Below are positions 17,231-62,207 of a stretch of DNA of 64,000 nt, one piece after another (positions within the stretch are counted from its first letter, which is position 1; every line of letters starts with the position of its first letter). The notes below the pieces were generated by a model. The model was not told the origin of the DNA and searched no databases. It was given only the letters and a program-made list of their open reading frames with translations. The position numbers and the translations under genes were made by a program. Source of the stretch: a virus; IMG/VR virus record IMGVR_UViG_3300012665_001507; one strand, written 5' to 3'.

Positions 17231-17902
17231 TTATGAATAATATGTTTGGTAAACATCGTTGGTTAAACCGAAGTCAATTAGAACGATATCATCTTGACCA
17301 CCTCTTTGTACAATTCCGTAACTATTAAGTCTACCGAAGTCACCAGCGGGTGCGTCAATGTTTTGCATAAATTCAGCAATAGAACCAACAAACTCATTTT
17401 CATCAAGCCTAGCTTTTACTTCTGGGTCCATACTAAACATTGGTTTTTTACCACGGTTGACTTCGTTGAAGTTTCTTAAGTACATATTTAATTCTTCAAT
17501 AGTACAATCAGCAAGTCTTTGGAAGTCTTTCTTACTTACTTTTCTAGCCAATTCCATTTCAACCCATAAATCATCTGGATGATACATAAACGTATGTGCT
17601 AAGATTGAACCGAAATAAGAATCTTGACCCCATTGGATTTCAACTTCATTTTGTGCAAGTCCTTTTTGGTTCTTTGCCAATTTAAGTACTTTGGTGTCGT
17701 CTACCATATAAACAATACGTGCTGAACCAGAAGAAATTCTTTTAAGATGTTCTTCACAGTATCTAACTCTTTCAGCAAATTTCGTAAGTGTTTTAAAATG
17801 GTCCATATCAAATGTTGTAGGGTAATCCTCATCGACCATCATATTCTCTAGTAAATCAAAAGTCATTGTTTCAGATAACTTCTTTTTGATAAAATCTTTC
17901 AT
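17231..17902 (-). CDS. Protein-kinase-like fold protein
   Basis: SSGSARIVY glycine loop, VLKLA lysine, NEVE, D...N, LIDFG. Confidence 0.6.
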   Translation of the reverse strand: MKDFIKKKLSETMTFDLLENMMVDEDYPTTFDMDHFKTLTKFAERVRYCEEHLKRISSGSARIVYMVDDTKVLKLAKNQKGLAQNEVEIQWGQDSYFGSILAHTFMYHPDDLWVEMELARKVSKKDFQRLADCTIEELNMYLRNFNEVNRGKKPMFSMDPEVKARLDENEFVGSIAEFMQNIDAPAGDFGRLNSYGIVQRGGQDDIVLIDFGLTNDVYQTYYS

Positions 17903-17961
17903 TGTATTGTTTTATTATAAATATCCTTGATTTATTAAAAACACTTTGCTATATTTGTCCT

Positions 17962-18936
17962 ATGAACATACTAATTACTGGAGGAATGGGATTCATTGGT
18001 TCTCACCTCGTTAAACACATGGTTGAAAAATACCCTAACTATCGTATCATAAATTACGACAAACTAACATATGCTAGTAACCCTAGATTTTTGCGTTCAC
18101 TAGATGATTACCCAAACTACCATTTTGTTATGGGTGACATATGTAATAATTCACAATTGGAAGACACATTCGCAAAATATAAAATAACACACGTTATACA
18201 CTTGGCGGCTGAATCACATGTAGATAACTCTATCTTTGACCCTTCAGCTTTCATCCAAACAAACATTGTTGGAACAGCTAACCTATTAACTATGTGTAGA
18301 AACAGATGGAGAGGCGATAACCATAAATTTTACCACATTTCAACTGATGAGGTTTATGGTTCTTTAGGTAGTGAAGGTTACTTTACCGAAGATACACCTT
18401 ATGACCCTAGAAGTCCTTATTCAGCGTCAAAAGCTAGTTCTGACCACTTGGTTCGAGCATATTTCCACACATATGGTTTCCCAGCAGTTATTTCAAACTG
18501 TTCAAATAACTATGGACCAAACCAACATAACGAAAAATTAATTCCTTTGACTATTCAACGAATCAAAGACCAAAAAGAAATTCCTGTTTACGGTGATGGA
18601 TTAAATGTTAGAGATTGGTTATATGTTGAAGACCATGTGTCTGCAATCGATACAATCTTCCATACTGGAGTAAATGGTGAAACATATAACATTGGCGGCA
18701 ATAACGAATCCACCAACATCAATTTGGTTAATAAACTATGTGATTTGATGGATTCCAAACTGGGTCGTGAACAAGGAACGTCACGAGGTTTGATTAGTTA
18801 CGTTAAAGATAGGTTAGGTCATGATAGGAGATATGCGATTGATTCATCCAAGCTAACCCAAGAACTTGGATGGGAACCTAAAACCGAATTTGAATTAGGG
18901 TTATCCAATACGATTGATTGGTATCTTAACGTCTAG
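17962..18936 (+). CDS. rfbB: dTDP-glucose 4,6-dehydratase
   Basis: GGMGFIG, DKLTYA, HLAAESHVD, STDEVYG, YSASK, GHDRRY; start ATG 17962. Confidence 0.95.
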   Translation: MNILITGGMGFIGSHLVKHMVEKYPNYRIINYDKLTYASNPRFLRSLDDYPNYHFVMGDICNNSQLEDTFAKYKITHVIHLAAESHVDNSIFDPSAFIQTNIVGTANLLTMCRNRWRGDNHKFYHISTDEVYGSLGSEGYFTEDTPYDPRSPYSASKASSDHLVRAYFHTYGFPAVISNCSNNYGPNQHNEKLIPLTIQRIKDQKEIPVYGDGLNVRDWLYVEDHVSAIDTIFHTGVNGETYNIGGNNESTNINLVNKLCDLMDSKLGREQGTSRGLISYVKDRLGHDRRYAIDSSKLTQELGWEPKTEFELGLSNTIDWYLNV

Positions 18937-19021
18937 CGGAGAGTGTGGGATTCGAACCCACGGGCCCCTTTCGAGGCCACGGTTTAGCAAACCGCTCCAT
19001 TAACCACTCTGGCAACTCTCC
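18937..19021 (-). tRNA. tRNA-Ser(GCT)
   Basis: Cloverleaf with long variable arm, loop TT-GCT-AA, G73. Confidence 0.93.
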
Positions 19022-19026
19022 AATTG

Positions 19027-19099
19027 TACCCCTACAGGGATTCGAACCCCGATACTGGCCTTAGAAGGGCCATGTCCTATCCAGTTGAACGATAGAGGC
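19027..19099 (-). tRNA. tRNA-Arg(TCT)
   Basis: Cloverleaf, loop CT-TCT-AA. Confidence 0.93.
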
Positions 19100-19110
19100 A
19101 TATTATGTTG

Positions 19111-19183
19111 TGACCCTACAGGGATTCGAACCCCGATTCTAGCATTCGTAGTGCTAAGTCCTATCCAGTTGAACGATAGGGCC
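19111..19183 (-). tRNA. tRNA-Arg(ACG)
   Basis: Cloverleaf, loop CT-ACG-AA; D and T arms shared with the neighbouring Arg(TCT). Confidence 0.93.
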
Positions 19184-19275
19184 AAATTATTGCGACACTT
19201 TGTCGTGATAATTGTCGCAATTTTATCTTTTTTCTTCTTTCTCGCCATAATCACGACATTTTGGCGAGATTCGAG

Positions 19276-19349
19276 TAGCGATAACTGGACTCGAACCAGT
19301 GTCTCTGCCTTATGAGAGCAGCGTAAGAAACCAACTCTACCATATCGCC
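19276..19349 (-). tRNA. tRNA-Met(CAT), elongator type
   Basis: Cloverleaf, loop CT-CAT-AA, GGCG acceptor with paired 1:72. Confidence 0.85.
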
Positions 19350-19354
19350 ATTTC

Positions 19355-19507
19355 TTATCTTTTAAAAATAATTTTATTCCGTTCAATCGCTTTCTTAATC
19401 CTTTCAACCTCTTCTTTACTCGGATTGGTATTAACCGAATAAGTTATCCCCATTTTATCCATGTAATCATAAAGACGTTGCATGTCAGCTTCACTTGTCT
19501 TTTTCAT
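19355..19507 (-). CDS. Small ORF within the tRNA array (50 aa, MKKTSEADMQRLYDYMDKMG...)
   Basis: Fills the spacer between two tRNAs exactly; A-rich leader. Confidence 0.55.
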   Translation of the reverse strand: MKKTSEADMQRLYDYMDKMGITYSVNTNPSKEEVERIKKAIERNKIIFKR

Positions 19508-19521
19508 TTTATTTATTTTTG

Positions 19522-19595
19522 CGGGGCCGCTGGGATTCGAACCCAGGTAAATGGATTAACAGTCCACCGTATTAGACCGCTGCTACGACAGCCCC
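19522..19595 (-). tRNA. tRNA-Asn(GTT), divergent body
   Basis: Cloverleaf, loop CT-GTT-AA, G73, short variable loop. Confidence 0.85.
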
Positions 19596-19602
19596 TTGTT
19601 TG

Positions 19603-19674
19603 CTCTTCGGGGGAATTTCGAAATCCCGACCTAACGGTTAACAGCCGTTTGCTCTGCCTCTGAGCTACCGAAGA
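19603..19674 (-). tRNA. tRNA-Asn(GTT)
   Basis: Cloverleaf, loop CT-GTT-AA, G73. Confidence 0.9.
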
Positions 19675-19679
19675 ATATT

Positions 19680-19756
19680 TGGTGGTCCATCTAGGATTCG
19701 AACCTAGGACCTTCTCGTTATGAGCGAGCTGCTCTAACCAACTGAGCTAAAAGACC
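19680..19756 (-). tRNA. tRNA(CAT), probably Ile2 (lysidine type), encoded CCA
   Basis: Cloverleaf, loop CT-CAT-AA, Ile-like D arm TAGCTCAGTTGGTTAGAGC, ends ACCA. Confidence 0.8.
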
Positions 19757-19818
19757 AAATATCTGTTATACTTGGCCAAAACTCGTTAAAAAAGTGAGTT
19801 TTGGCCGCTTATAAATTG

Positions 19819-19892
19819 TAGGCAACACGAGAGTCGAACTCGTAACCTCTTCGGTATCAGCGAAGTGCTCTAACCAGTTGAGCTAGCTGCCT
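19819..19892 (-). tRNA. tRNA-Ile(GAT)
   Basis: Cloverleaf, loop CT-GAT-AC. Confidence 0.92.
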
Positions 19893-19904
19893 ATGTTGGA
19901 AACC

Positions 19905-20099
19905 CTAAGATTTCCATTGTGTTTTTCTGTTGTGTTTCCACGTTCTAAATTCTCTCCATTTATGGTTTTCAATGTTTCCATGATTCCATGTCCACCCTTC
20001 TTCATAATATGGTGGGTACAATTCCAATAAGAGAATTCGTCTGTAATCTTTTGAGCAAGTTGCTTTTTTAAATTTTGCTCTGCTTACGTTTACACTCAT
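19905..20099 (-). CDS. Small basic protein (..RTWKHNRKTQWK)
   Basis: ORF track; inside the tRNA array; preceded by a 9-codon uORF. Confidence 0.6.
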   Translation of the reverse strand: MSVNVSRAKFKKATCSKDYRRILLLELYPPYYEEGWTWNHGNIENHKWREFRTWKHNRKTQWKS

Positions 20100-20127
20100 A
20101 ACTTCGTAGTCTATTGTTTAGTAGACC

Positions 20128-20154
20128 TCAAAGCATATCAAATTCTTTTTTCAT
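20128..20154 (-). promoter_or_regulatory. uORF MKKEFDML ending CTT-TGA, followed by a hairpin
   Basis: ATG AAA AAA GAA TTT GAT ATG CTT TGA, then GGTCTA..TAGACT stem ending 8 nt before the next ATG. Confidence 0.45.
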
Positions 20155-20167
20155 AACACTAATTTTG

Positions 20168-20238
20168 CACACCCACTAGGATTCGAACCTAGAACAACGG
20201 TTTTGGAGACCGTGATGATACCATTTCACCATGGATGT
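20168..20238 (-). tRNA. tRNA-Trp(CCA)
   Basis: Cloverleaf, loop CT-CCA-AA, G73. Confidence 0.92.
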
Positions 20239-20244
20239 ATTTTG

Positions 20245-20316
20245 GGTGTTAGGACGGTACCGAGCCGTCTTCTTTGGCTTCACAAACCAACACTTCACCT
20301 TAAAGCTTCAAACACC
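20245..20316 (-). tRNA. tRNA-His(GTG), divergent
   Basis: G-1:C73, loop TT-GTG-AA, atypical T loop CTCGGTA. Confidence 0.8.
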
Positions 20317-20325
20317 ATATACTAG

Positions 20326-20400
20326 GGTGGAAGATGGGTCTCGAACCCACGACCTTCTGAACCACAATCAGACGCTCTAACCAACTGAGCTACAACCACC
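20326..20400 (-). tRNA. tRNA-His(GTG)
   Basis: G-1:C73, loop TT-GTG-GT, canonical arms. Confidence 0.92.
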
Positions 20401-20409
20401 ATTTATTTG

Positions 20410-20499
20410 CGGAGAGAGTGGGACTCGAACCCACACATCCTTTTACAAACCCTCGGTTTTCAAGACCGCTGCCGCTAGGCCAACTCGGCTTACCTCTCC
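20410..20499 (-). tRNA. tRNA-Ser(TGA)
   Basis: Long variable arm, loop CT-TGA-AA, G73. Confidence 0.9.
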
Positions 20500-20675
20500 G
20501 TATTATTTTTAATCTGTACAAAAACGACAGTGAAACCACCCTCTTTTTGAAATTTCAATTCACCTTGATACCCGCTGGCATCTGCAATCTTTCTGTACTT
20601 GTCGACAATCAAGTCGAAATTCTTTGCTAGGTCTAAGTTTTTTTCTTGCCCTAACTTTCTTACCAATTCTCCCAT
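20490..20675 (-). CDS. Hypothetical protein, first gene after the attenuator
   Basis: 61-aa ORF whose stop overlaps the 5' end of tRNA-Ser(TGA). Confidence 0.5.
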   Translation of the reverse strand: MGELVRKLGQEKNLDLAKNFDLIVDKYRKIADASGYQGELKFQKEGGFTVVFVQIKNNTER

Positions 20676-20681
20676 AGTCGT

Positions 20682-20719
20682 AAAATAAAAAACCCGACTA
20701 AGTTTTCACTTGTCGGGTT
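20682..20719 (-). terminator. Attenuator terminator upstream of the tRNA array
   Basis: AACCCGAC-AAGTGAAAACTTA-GTCGGGTT followed by TTTTATTTT; its 5' arm is also complementary to TGTCGGGT in the leader ORF. Confidence 0.85.
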
Positions 20720-20749
20720 AATGTTATTTGTTGTTATCTTTTGAGTTGT

Positions 20750-20848
20750 TTAGAACTCAGTGATATCACAATTAGACATACCCGACACATGGTGACTATT
20801 GCGTCTCCAATTCGAAATCGAAATCATATGTATGTTAATTGTTCTCAT
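20750..20848 (-). CDS. Leader (attenuator) peptide MRTINIHMISISNWRRNSHHVSGMSNCDITEF
   Basis: 32-codon ORF between the promoter (20916-20923) and the terminator; codons match the downstream tRNA set. Confidence 0.8.
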   Translation of the reverse strand: MRTINIHMISISNWRRNSHHVSGMSNCDITEF

Positions 20849-20991
20849 TTTGTTTTTCTTTGTTTGAGCATTGTGCTCGTTGTTAATAAATATACTCCTA
20901 TTTCTAAAAGTTATACAAAGGTACTATCTTTTTTAATAAAAAGCAAGCTTTTTTGTAAATATTTTTATTTTATTTTATAAATGTTTGATTA

Positions 20992-24191: not shown

Positions 24192-24437
24192 TCAAGGATA
24201 AATCCTTGCTATGTTATTTATGATTTCTAATTTGGCCTTGAATTTAATCGAACCCTTGGTGCTTGGATTGTCTGGTGTTTCTTTGGTTGAAAAGCCAATA
24301 CCAGAATCCATATCTACATGGTCAACATAGTATGTTTCACCCTTGACTTTGATTACCCACATTGGAATGTTGGTATCTTGCAAGTGCATCTTGTTGAAAT
24401 GGAAAATAATCTCGGTTCTTTTATCGATTTTAAGCAT
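24192..24437 (-). CDS. Hypothetical protein
   Basis: Overlaps the Pth2 stop (translational coupling). Confidence 0.65.
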   Translation of the reverse strand: MLKIDKRTEIIFHFNKMHLQDTNIPMWVIKVKGETYYVDHVDMDSGIGFSTKETPDNPSTKGSIKFKAKLEIINNIARIYP

Positions 24438-24780
24438 GACATACCTCCTTTCCTAGTAACGGACAAGAACTTGTCAACTTTCTAGCTCTATCGCTAGGTT
24501 CAAATGCTACTGCTGTGATTTCGTTGTTCAAGTCTGGTTCACGAAATAACGTGTACTTGATACCAGACACAAGAGCTTTGCTAATCAATTTGATTAACGC
24601 TTCTTCGTCAGCGACAGTCAGTAATGCTAAATAGTTTGAATTTTTTTGCCATTGTGTAGCTTCCTGTGGATGCTCATGTTGAAAATCAATGGCTGCGTGT
24701 GCAGATTGCACCGCTTGTGTAGAAATTTGTAGGTCACGTCTTGTGACAACTCTTAATTTTTGATTGTTAATCTATTTCAT
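24430..24780 (-). CDS. Peptidyl-tRNA hydrolase type 2 with in-frame TAG at codon 3
   Basis: ATG AAA TAG ATT... continues in frame to KLRVVTRRDL...AVQSAHAA (the Pth2 N-terminal signature) and FREPDL...TAVA. Confidence 0.75.
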
Positions 24781-24835
24781 CGTTTTTGTTTTTATATAAA
24801 TATATTACTTTAATTTAAAAAGTCAAATCTTTTTG

Positions 24836-24907
24836 TGATTCTAATGGGATTCGAACCCATGCCTAATGGTTTTAGAGGCCATCGTACTGCCGTTATACTA
24901 TAGAACC
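24836..24907 (-). tRNA. Amber suppressor tRNA (anticodon CTA)
   Basis: GGTTCTA/TAGAATC acceptor, GTAT/GTAC D stem, ATGGC-CTCTAAA-ACCAT anticodon arm, ATGGG-TTCGAAT-CCCAT T arm; own promoter at 24919. Confidence 0.88.
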
Positions 24908-26036: not shown

Positions 26037-26714
26037 TTATGCAAGTAATTCTAATTTTCCTCGTAAGATATCTTTCAAACTGGCTGTTTTATTGGTAAGG
26101 TGGTCAACAACAACACCATCTTTTACTCGATATGTTCTACGTTTGTCACTTCTATCACCCTTACCAATTTGTTCACGTCTTTCTTCAACCTCTTCAGAAG
26201 TATGACCTGTACGATAAAATTCATTTACACGTCTTTTAAGCTCTTTTAAAGCATCTTCTTTGTTCTTGTGTTGATTCCTTCCATCTCGAACTACTTTGAG
26301 CCCTGTAGCCACGTGTGTAACCACCACACAAGAATCTGTGGTGTTCTTATGTTGACCACCATTCCCAGTTCCTCTGGTTGTTTCCAAACGATATTCACTA
26401 GGATGTAATTCTACTTCCTTGTACTCGTTTTCCTCTAAAATTGCTACAGTAATTGAACTGGTATGAACTCTACCCTTTCTTTCGGTTGGTGGGACTCTTT
26501 GCCACCTGTGGTTTCCCACTTCGTTGCTAAAGACTTCTTTTACATTCTTGCCTGTTAGTCAGATACTAACAAACCCTAACCTATCTTCGGTTATCAGTCA
26601 GTCGATGTTATTGTTTTTCGCTGTTTTGATGTAAATGTCTCGCATTTCACAAACCAACAGCTTCGCATCGGTTCCACCCTCTGCATCACGGATTTCTAAT
26701 AAGATTTTTCCCAT
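26037..26714 (-). CDS. Class I release factor, RF1-like, lacking domain 1, with two in-frame TGA
   Basis: MGKILLEIRDAEGG...; TGA at codons 39 and 52; GNHRWQRVPPTE..GRVHTS (PxT), GGQ, RNQHKNK, RTY. Confidence 0.85.
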
Positions 26715-26836: not shown

Positions 26837-26908
26837 TAGCGGATGATGGACTCGAACCACCGACCTCAAGGTTATGAGCCTTGCGAGCTACCTCTGCTCT
26901 AATCCGCA
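26837..26908 (-). tRNA. tRNA-Met(CAT), initiator-like
   Basis: TGCGGAT/ATCCGCT acceptor with 1:72 mismatch, AGAGCAG..GGTAGCTCG D arm, loop CT-CAT-AA. Confidence 0.85.
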
Positions 26909-26915
26909 ATGTTAG

Positions 26916-26986
26916 ACTACTATAAAGGACTCGAACCTTTTACCCTCACCCCCATGGATGCCGCACTTCCCTCATGCTTATAGTAA
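26916..26986 (-). ncRNA. tRNA-like element without a canonical anticodon loop
   Basis: TTACTAT/ATAGTAG acceptor, GCAT/GTGC D stem, AAAGG-TTCGAGT-CCTTT T arm, aberrant anticodon arm. Confidence 0.6.
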
Positions 26987-26996
26987 TATTGTTGAC

Positions 26997-27058
26997 CAGA
27001 ATCTATTGTTGTTTTCTGTTTTTCTGATAGAGTTTTTCAATTGCTGAAAAGATTCTTT
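26997..27058 (-). ncRNA. CWGCAA stem-closed ncRNA-like element B
   Basis: AAAGAATCT-TTTCAGCAA...AGATTCTG. Confidence 0.6.
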
Positions 27059-27071
27059 AGTCAATTTGTTT

Positions 27072-27131
27072 TGGAACTGTCCAGACTTACAACTCTGCCT
27101 TTCGGCTGTCCAAGTTAAATGCCCTGTTCCA
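27072..27131 (-). ncRNA. Hairpin with two GGACA internal loops and a GAAA tetraloop
   Basis: TGGAAC..GTTCCA outer stem, GCC-GAAA-GGC cap. Confidence 0.55.
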
Positions 27132-27144
27132 TAATATCTTATCT

Positions 27145-27379
27145 CAAGATGGTTTTTTGTGTTTTTCATCCCAGCGGATTAACCCTTTTTACGTCTTCGG
27201 CTTTGCTTTGGCGAGAGTCTACTTTACTTCGACTACATCCTACTCGCACCTTTTGGGGTGGTCTGACGTTTGTTTGTTTTTTATACTGGTTAAACTTCCA
27301 TTTACCATGAAGAGCGATACTATCACTGTTCTTTTTTGGTTCTCATAGTTGTGTCTGTTTGGTTGCAGAACCCATCTTT
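27145..27379 (-). ncRNA. CWGCAA stem-closed ncRNA-like element C (long insert)
   Basis: AAAGATGG-GTTCTGCAA ...about 210 nt... CCATCTTG; first element after the promoter at 27434. Confidence 0.55.
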
Positions 27380-27482
27380 CTAGATAATGTTTTTTTTTTA
27401 ATAAAATTAAGAACGTTTTAAAATAAATATACACAAAGGTACGAATTTTTTATGTCCGTGTCAAGTTTTTTTGCAATTATTT

Positions 27483-28082: not shown

Positions 28083-28169
28083 ATTTTAAACAAAAAACCC
28101 TCAACAAAGCGACTTGTCAAGGGTTGTAATTTCTACCCCAAAGGCGGGCTGGGGAGAATCAATGGTGAG

Positions 28170-28521
28170 TGGAGATAAGGGGAATCGAACCCCTGTGTTG
28201 AACATTCTTCAAAAGCTTTCTACATGTTTAGGTCATAGTTTGTGAAACTATCCGAAATTTTGCAACATTTACGGCTACTTGCTCTCCTAGTAGAGTACTA
28301 CCATCAATGGACTACCATTATTTAGTGGTTTACCACCATTTGCAATAATTAGGCTACTGCTACCTCTCCAGCGAAACTACATGTAGCTTCAGTAAGGAAA
28401 TTTTCTGATACGATAAAATCGTTGTCAATTCATTGTTTTAATAGACAGATTAAAGTGCTTCCAATCTAGCACTACATGCTTACAGTTTACGACTATATTC
28501 AGTCAATACCGTGGTATCCCC
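28170..28521 (-). ncRNA. ssrA: tmRNA
   Basis: 5' GGGGATA..TTGAC; 3' CAGGGGTTCGATTCCCCTTATCTCCA with G3:U70; internal ORF DNDFIVSENFLTEATCSFAGEVAVA* (28349-28426). Confidence 0.9.
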
Positions 28522-62151: not shown

Positions 62152-62207
62152 ATTTTATAAATATCTTTTTCTTTATTTTAGTTATAAATATCTAATAGTA
62201 AATAATA

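Follow-up and report, generated by a model that had tools for sequence, protein, structure and literature searches.

How does a phage that carries its own array of tRNA genes control when these are transcribed? This question is raised by a locus in a 64,000-nucleotide stretch of viral DNA (IMG/VR virus record IMGVR_UViG_3300012665_001507; hereafter the window), where, on the minus strand, a promoter, a leader open reading frame (ORF) of 32 codons, an antiterminator and an intrinsic terminator are followed by a gene for a 61-amino-acid (61-aa) protein and 12 tRNA genes. An interpretation made earlier from the letters of the DNA (the sequence-only reading) had placed promoter, leader, antiterminator, terminator and tRNAs in this order and at the same positions as we find them, and passed over the 61-aa ORF, a helix between leader codons 4-8 and 21-27, a motif at 20893-20886 and two ORFs inside the array. 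It had taken the locus for a trp/his-type attenuator. Our data support this view through co-variation of leader codons with array content, ribosome-masked folding and covariation between antiterminator and terminator. We thus favor ribosome-coupled transcription attenuation of the trp/his type, acting on tRNA genes as product feedback, with a probability of roughly 0.87.

The window is a piece of an uncultured jumbo phage genome, whose relatives measure 200-370 kb. The host presumably belongs to the Bacteroidota, as judged from a TAnnTTTG promoter element and A-rich start regions that lack a Shine-Dalgarno sequence, features that are typical of this phylum. Neither tblastn nor blastn searches with the leader among cultured phages revealed a cultured relative of this jumbo lineage. 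Near-complete relatives contain four cassettes of the kind described here (A-D); the window holds the family-A cassette and none of the other three (B-D). A close relative, whose 61-aa ORF is 95% identical (the L003/L009/L057 contig), contains cassettes A, C and D.

Leader codons and the tRNA genes behind them

The leader ORF (20848-20750, minus strand) begins in an A-rich context, and no Shine-Dalgarno sequence precedes it. Its codons 7-19 (20830-20792) encode His Met Ile Ser Ile Ser Asn Trp Arg Arg Asn Ser His, and codons 7-18 employ solely the seven amino acids (Ser, His, Trp, Ile, Met, Asn and Arg) that are served by the 12 tRNA genes of the array (20499-18936, minus strand). The sequence-only reading had counted 18 matches among the 19 codons from 2 to 20. 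Such a match (at least 18/19) is not expected by chance: given the codon usage of the phage itself, P is 3e-10 to 4e-9, and of the 1047 frames of 20 codons that start with ATG in the window, only this leader reaches 12/12 at codons 7-18. However, not all of the 19 positions are informative. Codons 2-6 are similar to the leader starts of other tRNA operons (41-52% of them fall into set A even in the leaders of cassettes B and C) and conservation is lacking at codon 20, which leaves a sensor block of approximately codons 7-19 as the informative part. These codons are almost fixed, and those beyond codon 20 vary freely.

Scans of viral and metagenome sequences yielded 57 distinct full-length family-A leaders. 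All 57 show an open frame of 29-33 codons, which was required for their detection, and a terminator 20-35 nucleotides (nt) later, in nearly all cases followed by the same tRNA set. The fraction of codons 7-18 that fall into the set (in-set fraction) was 1.00 (rounded), compared to a background of 0.28. Ser codon 12 alternates between TCG, AGT and AGC, and Arg codon 16 between CGT, CGC and CGA. As an exchange of TCG for AGY at Ser-12 requires two base changes, selection appears to act on the amino acid. Our search patterns fixed part of the sensor block, and we therefore relied mainly on loci that were found via the 61-aa ORF, with the leader unused. At these loci, 6/6 distinct substitutions at codons 4-19 stay inside the seven amino acids. 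The sensor also keeps rare codons, i.e., TCG (6% of Ser codons) and CGC (1% of Arg codons); the sensitivity of attenuators is known to depend on codon choice (PMC1183508). Co-variation at the level of isoacceptors was not found within family A.

Five large relatives, four of which are 100% complete, contain 17-65 tRNA matches each, arranged in several clusters. A cluster scan that employed no leader pattern revealed a short ORF and a terminator before every further main tRNA block of these five relatives. In the near-complete relatives, the cassettes split all 20 amino acids into groups of 7+3+4+6, and each leader fits its own block. Cassette A comprises the seven amino acids listed above, cassette B Cys, Val and Leu, cassette C Phe, Glu, Asp and Ala, and cassette D Pro, Lys, Gly, Gln, Tyr and Thr. 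The in-set fractions at codons 7-18 were 0.78 for B, 0.90 for C and 0.99 for D (backgrounds of 0.16, 0.25 and 0.32, respectively), and the cross-set values ranged from 0 to 0.12. Of the tRNAs, 389/399 (A), 66/68 (B), 112/127 (C) and 93/94 (D) belong to the set of their cassette. Where a B cassette is devoid of tRNA-Val (locus L052), Val is also absent from leader codons 6-20. An initiator-like tRNA-Met, an amber-suppressor tRNA and a second tRNA-Cys are located outside the cassettes. The first two are invisible to elongation stalling, and we count their exclusion as support. In most B-D cassettes, a tRNA follows directly after the terminator and no 61-aa protein is encoded. The 61-aa ORF is present in most family-A cassettes, in which the gap between terminator and tRNA is ~190 nt.

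In unrelated phages, the amino acids are divided in other ways. Two Cellulophaga phages in culture, phi38:1 and Calle_1, possess three tRNA blocks, each preceded by its own leader and terminator. One block covers Lys/Ile/Gly/Met/Asp/Thr/Val/Arg plus a probable tRNA-Ala (as read by eye), the second Tyr/Ser/Asn/Trp/Phe/Cys and the third Pro/Glu/Gln/His/Leu/Arg. The phi38:1 leaders match their own sets at 11/12, 12/12 and 11/12 codons, with an antiterminator duplex in each. Within the Cellulophaga phage records KC821614.1 (L171) and MT732432.1 (L172), the leaders of the three cassettes are not annotated as such. In the 634-kb phage LR745206, a leader with a 12/12 match precedes an Asn/Arg/Leu/Val/Ile/Thr/Met block. 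Altogether, eight different leaders each scored highest on their own block (10-12/12). That groupings differ and leaders nevertheless match is the strongest evidence for codon content having been selected to fit the tRNAs. Thus, the co-variation of leader codons with array content, which had been put forward as a check of the attenuator, holds across paralogous cassettes as well as across unrelated phages.

No chromosomal copy with this pattern was identified in 185,579 prokaryote genomes; two matches therein were due to chance, as they had no leader or terminator context. The same scan detected a complete family-A cassette in a Gammaproteobacteria metagenome-assembled genome; the 20-kb contig that carries it (L103, CAUYTX010000233.1) is probably a misbinned phage contig.

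Terminator, antiterminator and a candidate protector helix

The leader region folds better than all of 200 shuffled versions (z = -4.2). The intrinsic terminator (20719-20686, minus strand) consists of a hairpin (20719-20691) followed by a T-run. Because this hairpin is bulged, a simple terminator scan missed it, and folding recovered it. In covariation tests, which control for relatedness only in part, 7/7 pairs of the terminator stem were changed on both sides, 93.6% of alignment cells were paired and 0/500 shuffles performed as well.

The antiterminator core, TGTCGGGT (20787-20780, minus strand; codons 21-23), is complementary to 20718-20711 in the 5' arm of the terminator, in agreement with the sequence-only reading, and pairing continues through 20754 against the spacer 20747-20720. 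Changes in the terminator stem are followed by changes at leader codons 21-24. In family A, antiterminators pair more strongly with their own terminator arm than with those of other loci (-12.7 vs -9.4 kcal/mol; n = 44, p < 1e-4), and own pairing likewise exceeds cross pairing in families B, C and D. Collapsed to 13 terminator types, the complementary run measured 5.4 vs 3.9; for family D, which comprises just three types, the type-level comparison did not reach significance. On a plain MAFFT alignment, antiterminator and terminator show 40 two-sided changes, a number that 0/500 shuffles reach, and slid registers give lower values. As this alignment shifts some rows by one base, the count is probably conservative.

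Further upstream, region 1 (20839-20827, minus strand; codons 4-8) forms a protector, or anti-antiterminator, helix with 20786-20771 (codons 21-27) in the predicted minimum-free-energy structure. This helix is paired in 84.5% of cells with slight covariation, and the region 1 duplex of family A has an energy of -10.9 kcal/mol, compared to -4.3 kcal/mol for shuffles. The helix is predicted and conserved in A and D, weak in B and absent in C. The geometry of the leaders is fixed, with the best duplex at codons 20-24 and a gap of 20-37 nt between stop codon and terminator. Judging from these features, the locus has all properties that define a trp/his-type attenuator and can be assessed from sequence, the protector helix apart. 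Rfam, T-box included, gave no match over the leader region (20680-20930) up to E = 5; tRNAs were its only matches.

Folding was then modelled with the footprint of a ribosome masked, as the sequence-only reading had suggested, and with the transcript ending within the terminator loop. Across the four families, capture of the terminator arm amounted to 0.67-0.88 for stalls at codons 4-16 and fell to ≤0.14 by codon 22. In the window, capture was 1.00 and dropped to 0.13 at codon 20. Modelled read-through was ON with stalls at codons 4-18 and OFF from codon 20 onwards; in all four families, the leader captured the 5' arm in the former case, and the arm was released by codons 20-22. The ON window therefore coincides with the codon block.

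Proposed mechanism, objections and rival readings

From the anatomy of the locus, its conservation, the codon/tRNA matching, the covariation and the modelled structures, we infer leader translation, pausing, coupling, termination, a switching of read-through and a physiological trigger. Host RNA polymerase would start at the Bacteroidota-type promoter, with a ribosome following along the leader. As long as charged Ser, His, Trp, Ile, Met, Asn and Arg tRNAs are plentiful, the ribosome would move past codon ~19 and cover the core at codons 21-23; behind the passing ribosome, the core could pair with region 1, so that the terminator forms and the tRNAs stay off. If any cognate tRNA becomes scarce, the ribosome would wait at a codon up to ~18 and cover region 1. 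The core would then capture the 5' arm of the terminator ahead of synthesis of the 3' arm, and polymerase would enter the 61-aa gene and the 12 tRNA genes. The newly made tRNAs would relieve the stall. The device would thus act as an OR gate over ~10 tRNA species, and the family-A cassette would be one of a set that divides the genetic code.

Several observations weigh against this reading. At full-length equilibrium, the terminator still prevails at many stall positions, which means that the switch must be kinetic; the trp and his attenuators have been modelled as kinetic switches (PMC1183508). Without a ribosome and at intermediate transcript length, the antiterminator state is the more stable one (-32.7 vs -25.2 kcal/mol). 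The outcome for an untranslated leader is thus uncertain, and it hinges on persistence of the early 1:2 helix, with a barrier of ~11 kcal/mol. Several tRNAs are probed by one codon, which limits sensitivity. Extra anticodons in some family-A relatives (Arg-CCT, Ser-GGA and Tyr-GTA) have no leader codon. The match thus applies per amino acid and main anticodon and not per extra anticodon, and to this extent the claim that the leader senses exactly the tRNAs it controls has to be narrowed. Moreover, two loci (L038 and L003) retain the leader and have lost most or all tRNAs, and one (L021) has tRNAs and no leader that we could find. Finally, part of the sequence of the A, C and D leaders was predetermined by our search patterns, and related phages are non-independent samples.

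As judged from its design, the attenuator would sense usable charged tRNA and be blind to whether this is depleted by cleavage, starvation, dilution or missing modification. For the natural trigger, we consider anticodon nucleases and a general tRNA shortage to be at about even odds. In the former case, the attenuator would serve as an inducible counter-defence, in which phage copies make up for tRNAs cleaved by anticodon nucleases of the host, a purpose that is plausible and that we propose tentatively, somewhat short of an even chance. Phage tRNAs rescue phages from retron-Eco7 and PrrC (PMC11555353) and were proposed to evade tRNases (PMC10264068). The 1-3 codons devoted to each tRNA suit the sensing of near-total loss and suggest that severe depletion is detected, which fits host anticodon nucleases. 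In addition, an extra tRNA cures the loss of a tRNA and not amino-acid starvation, and RNA-repair-type genes, i.e., a CCA-adding enzyme and a kinase-phosphodiesterase, are located nearby. However, the coverage of all 20 amino acids and the lineage-specific groupings fit a general homeostasis equally well.

In the latter case, the attenuator would control general supply and top up the tRNA pool against decay, dilution and excess demand, which again we put below evens. That 3-4 cassettes cover the whole code is in line with this purpose, as is the same design in front of a gene for a protein: in LR745206.1 (L055:5915-6150), a 16-codon Val-rich leader, an antiterminator and a terminator directly precede a valyl-tRNA-synthetase-like ORF. 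Furthermore, there is a tRNA array in bacteria that responds to translational stress with induction (PMC8421152, PMC10272220). On the other hand, few codons per tRNA would confer poor sensitivity to a modest shortage, as argued from the known attenuators (PMC1183508).

Alternatively, the leader might respond to a general slow-down of translation, caused by antibiotics or ribosome damage as in ermC- or topAI-like systems, with the codon match being secondary. Any stall at codons 4-18 yields the ON structure, and general slowing would therefore induce as well; yet this explanation accounts neither for the top scores of the eight leaders on their own blocks nor for the substitutions remaining in the set, and we regard it as unlikely. 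Even less probable is a structured leader or plain terminator whose ORF is not functionally translated and which is uncontrolled or controlled by a protein, possibly the 61-aa protein: although codons 4-8 are constrained by base-pairing as well, synonymous and two-base Ser switches preserve the amino acid, the frame is intact in all 57 homologs (with the reservation on detection given above), and cassettes B-D mostly dispense with the 61-aa protein.

Flanking features, precedents and significance

Transcription of the preferred attenuator would start from a -7 element of the Bacteroidota type, TACCTTTG (20923-20916, minus strand), accompanied by a TTG-type -33 element near 20946. TAnnTTTG is presumably a promoter element, as judged from the Bacteroidetes sigma consensus. 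The motif is found within 130 nt upstream of 50/54 leaders in family A, 11/12 in B, 18/18 in C and 11/11 in D. As no second copy is present on the minus strand from 20916 to 17204, the array contains no internal promoter of that type. A further motif, ATATTTAT (20893-20886, minus strand), is a candidate for a second, phage-specific promoter element. The window contains 15 copies on the minus strand (e.g. at 62191, 50297, 44138, 40899, 22293, 20893 and 17924) and 3 on the plus strand. Many of the sites lie 20-45 nt upstream of gene starts, and the motif precedes 41/54 family-A leaders.

The first gene past the terminator is the conserved 61-aa ORF (20675-20490, minus strand). None of its 113 relatives is credibly named, and searches gave no significant Pfam match, no PHROG match and no usable family or Atlas match. 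Its structural model (predicted local distance difference test score of 81) displays a small alpha/beta fold, with a best fold match of Z 5.0 that is non-specific. It is followed on the minus strand by tRNA-Ser(TGA), two tRNA-His(GTG) and tRNA-Trp(CCA) (20499-20167), then by tRNA-Ile(GAT), a CAT tRNA of the Ile2 type (19756-19680) and two tRNA-Asn(GTT) (19892-19521), and finally by a CAT tRNA of the elongator-Met type, tRNA-Arg(ACG), tRNA-Arg(TCT) and tRNA-Ser(GCT) (19349-18936). Of the three CAT tRNAs of the window, the one at 19756 resembles E. coli Ile2, the one at 19349 elongator Met and the one at 26908, which is not part of the array, initiator Met; the acceptor stems of the first two, which are similar to E. 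coli ileX and metT, suggest their assignment to Ile2 and elongator Met. Two ORFs are embedded in the array, one of 64 aa (20099-19905, minus strand) without Pfam or PHROG match and one of 50 aa (19507-19355, minus strand) without significant match in these families. The spacer between tRNA-Met and tRNA-Arg(ACG) contains two hairpins (19190-19270). A nucleotide-sugar dehydratase gene (17902-18936, plus strand) is convergent with the array, and not a single spacer nucleotide separates its stop codon from the 3' end of tRNA-Ser(GCT). Among the relatives, L041, L044, L046, L047 and L057 have tRNAs with A34 anticodons (Leu-AAG and Gly-ACC), which are unusual in bacteria, and some arrays contain an Ile-TAT or a TCA-anticodon tRNA.

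Elsewhere in the window, which also encodes the CCA-adding enzyme and the kinase-phosphodiesterase, the stretch 24430-24907 (minus strand) contains a tRNA of the amber-suppressor type (CTA) and, directly downstream of it, a Pth2-like ORF. This ORF starts at 24780 and has an in-frame TAG at codon 3. A release-factor-like gene (26037-26713, minus strand) matches the RF-1 domain in PHROG; its upstream frame from ~26713 is broken twice by an in-frame TGA, near 26600 and near 26560, and stop-codon autoregulation is possible. At ~26900-27440 (minus strand), a promoter and a non-coding, apparently structured stretch precede the initiator-like tRNA-Met (26908-26836). The region ~28165-28521 (minus strand) resembles a transfer-messenger RNA gene, as judged from its ends by eye; ARAGORN did not report it.

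Multivalent attenuators are represented by the thrL and ilvGMEDA leaders, and a leader-peptide attenuator of aminoacyl-tRNA synthetase genes by E. coli pheM-pheST. His leaders are also found before Bacillus hisS paralogues (PMC2965389). In these synthetase leaders, as proposed for the phage, the level of charged tRNA feeds back on the translation machinery via a leader peptide, but theirs monitor a single amino acid and control a protein. The E. coli and Salmonella leaders trpL, hisL, pheL and leuL share with the phage leader a short ORF of cognate codons with antiterminator and terminator helices behind it, and their protector helix has a predicted counterpart in some of the phage families; as proposed for the phage, the position of the stalled ribosome decides on read-through (PMC1183508). 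The genes controlled in the phage are tRNAs and small ORFs, with no gene for amino-acid synthesis, transport or charging among them, and the locus is therefore not a member of the biosynthetic-operon attenuator families. In contrast to the latter, it controls the tRNAs themselves instead of biosynthetic enzymes, interleaves seven amino acids and ~10 anticodons at 1-3 codons each without any run, and is phage-borne, with parallel cassettes covering the whole code. T-box riboswitches also employ a terminator/antiterminator switch that answers to tRNA status, but bind the tRNA directly and do not need translation.

With respect to tRNA arrays, the Anabaena trn operon (a 26-tRNA L-array with the repressor TrcR) is likewise a mobile array, which comes on only under translational stress (PMC8421152, PMC10272220). 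However, a repressor protein controls it at the step of initiation, without codon specificity, and PMC8421152 mentions neither attenuation nor a leader. TrcR is a ribbon-helix-helix protein that acts at the promoter; for the phage array, the anatomy of the leader suggests attenuation. The tRNA-rich region of T5-like phages likewise offsets host tRNA-cleaving defences, but is attributed to a strong promoter, again with no mention of attenuation or a leader (PMC11555353). A 2026 review on jumbo phages does not mention attenuation either, and we found no attenuator of tRNA genes described in the literature searched, which included a minority of the subscription papers.

Taken together, attenuation, a known mechanism of enzyme operons, here has a new target class, i.e., tRNA genes, on which it would act by feedback. 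With a chance only slightly below one in two, we propose a widespread and apparently unpublished system, in which a few tRNA operons are each gated by a translated codon sampler; jointly, the samplers would monitor the decoding of all 20 amino acids, switch on only the block running short and provide an inducible answer to tRNA-cleaving immunity of the host. Such a built-in sensor would reveal what the phage monitors, namely the decoding speed of specific codon sets, and the cassettes would provide a reason for the observed grouping of phage tRNA genes. Used as a reporter, each cassette may show which tRNAs become scarce in the infected cell, when and in which host; Cellulophaga baltica and phi38:1 are a cultured phage-host pair that has been profiled by RNA-seq (PMC5335546). 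As compact multi-input sensors of tRNA shortage, the cassettes may also be useful for finding defence systems that target tRNAs.

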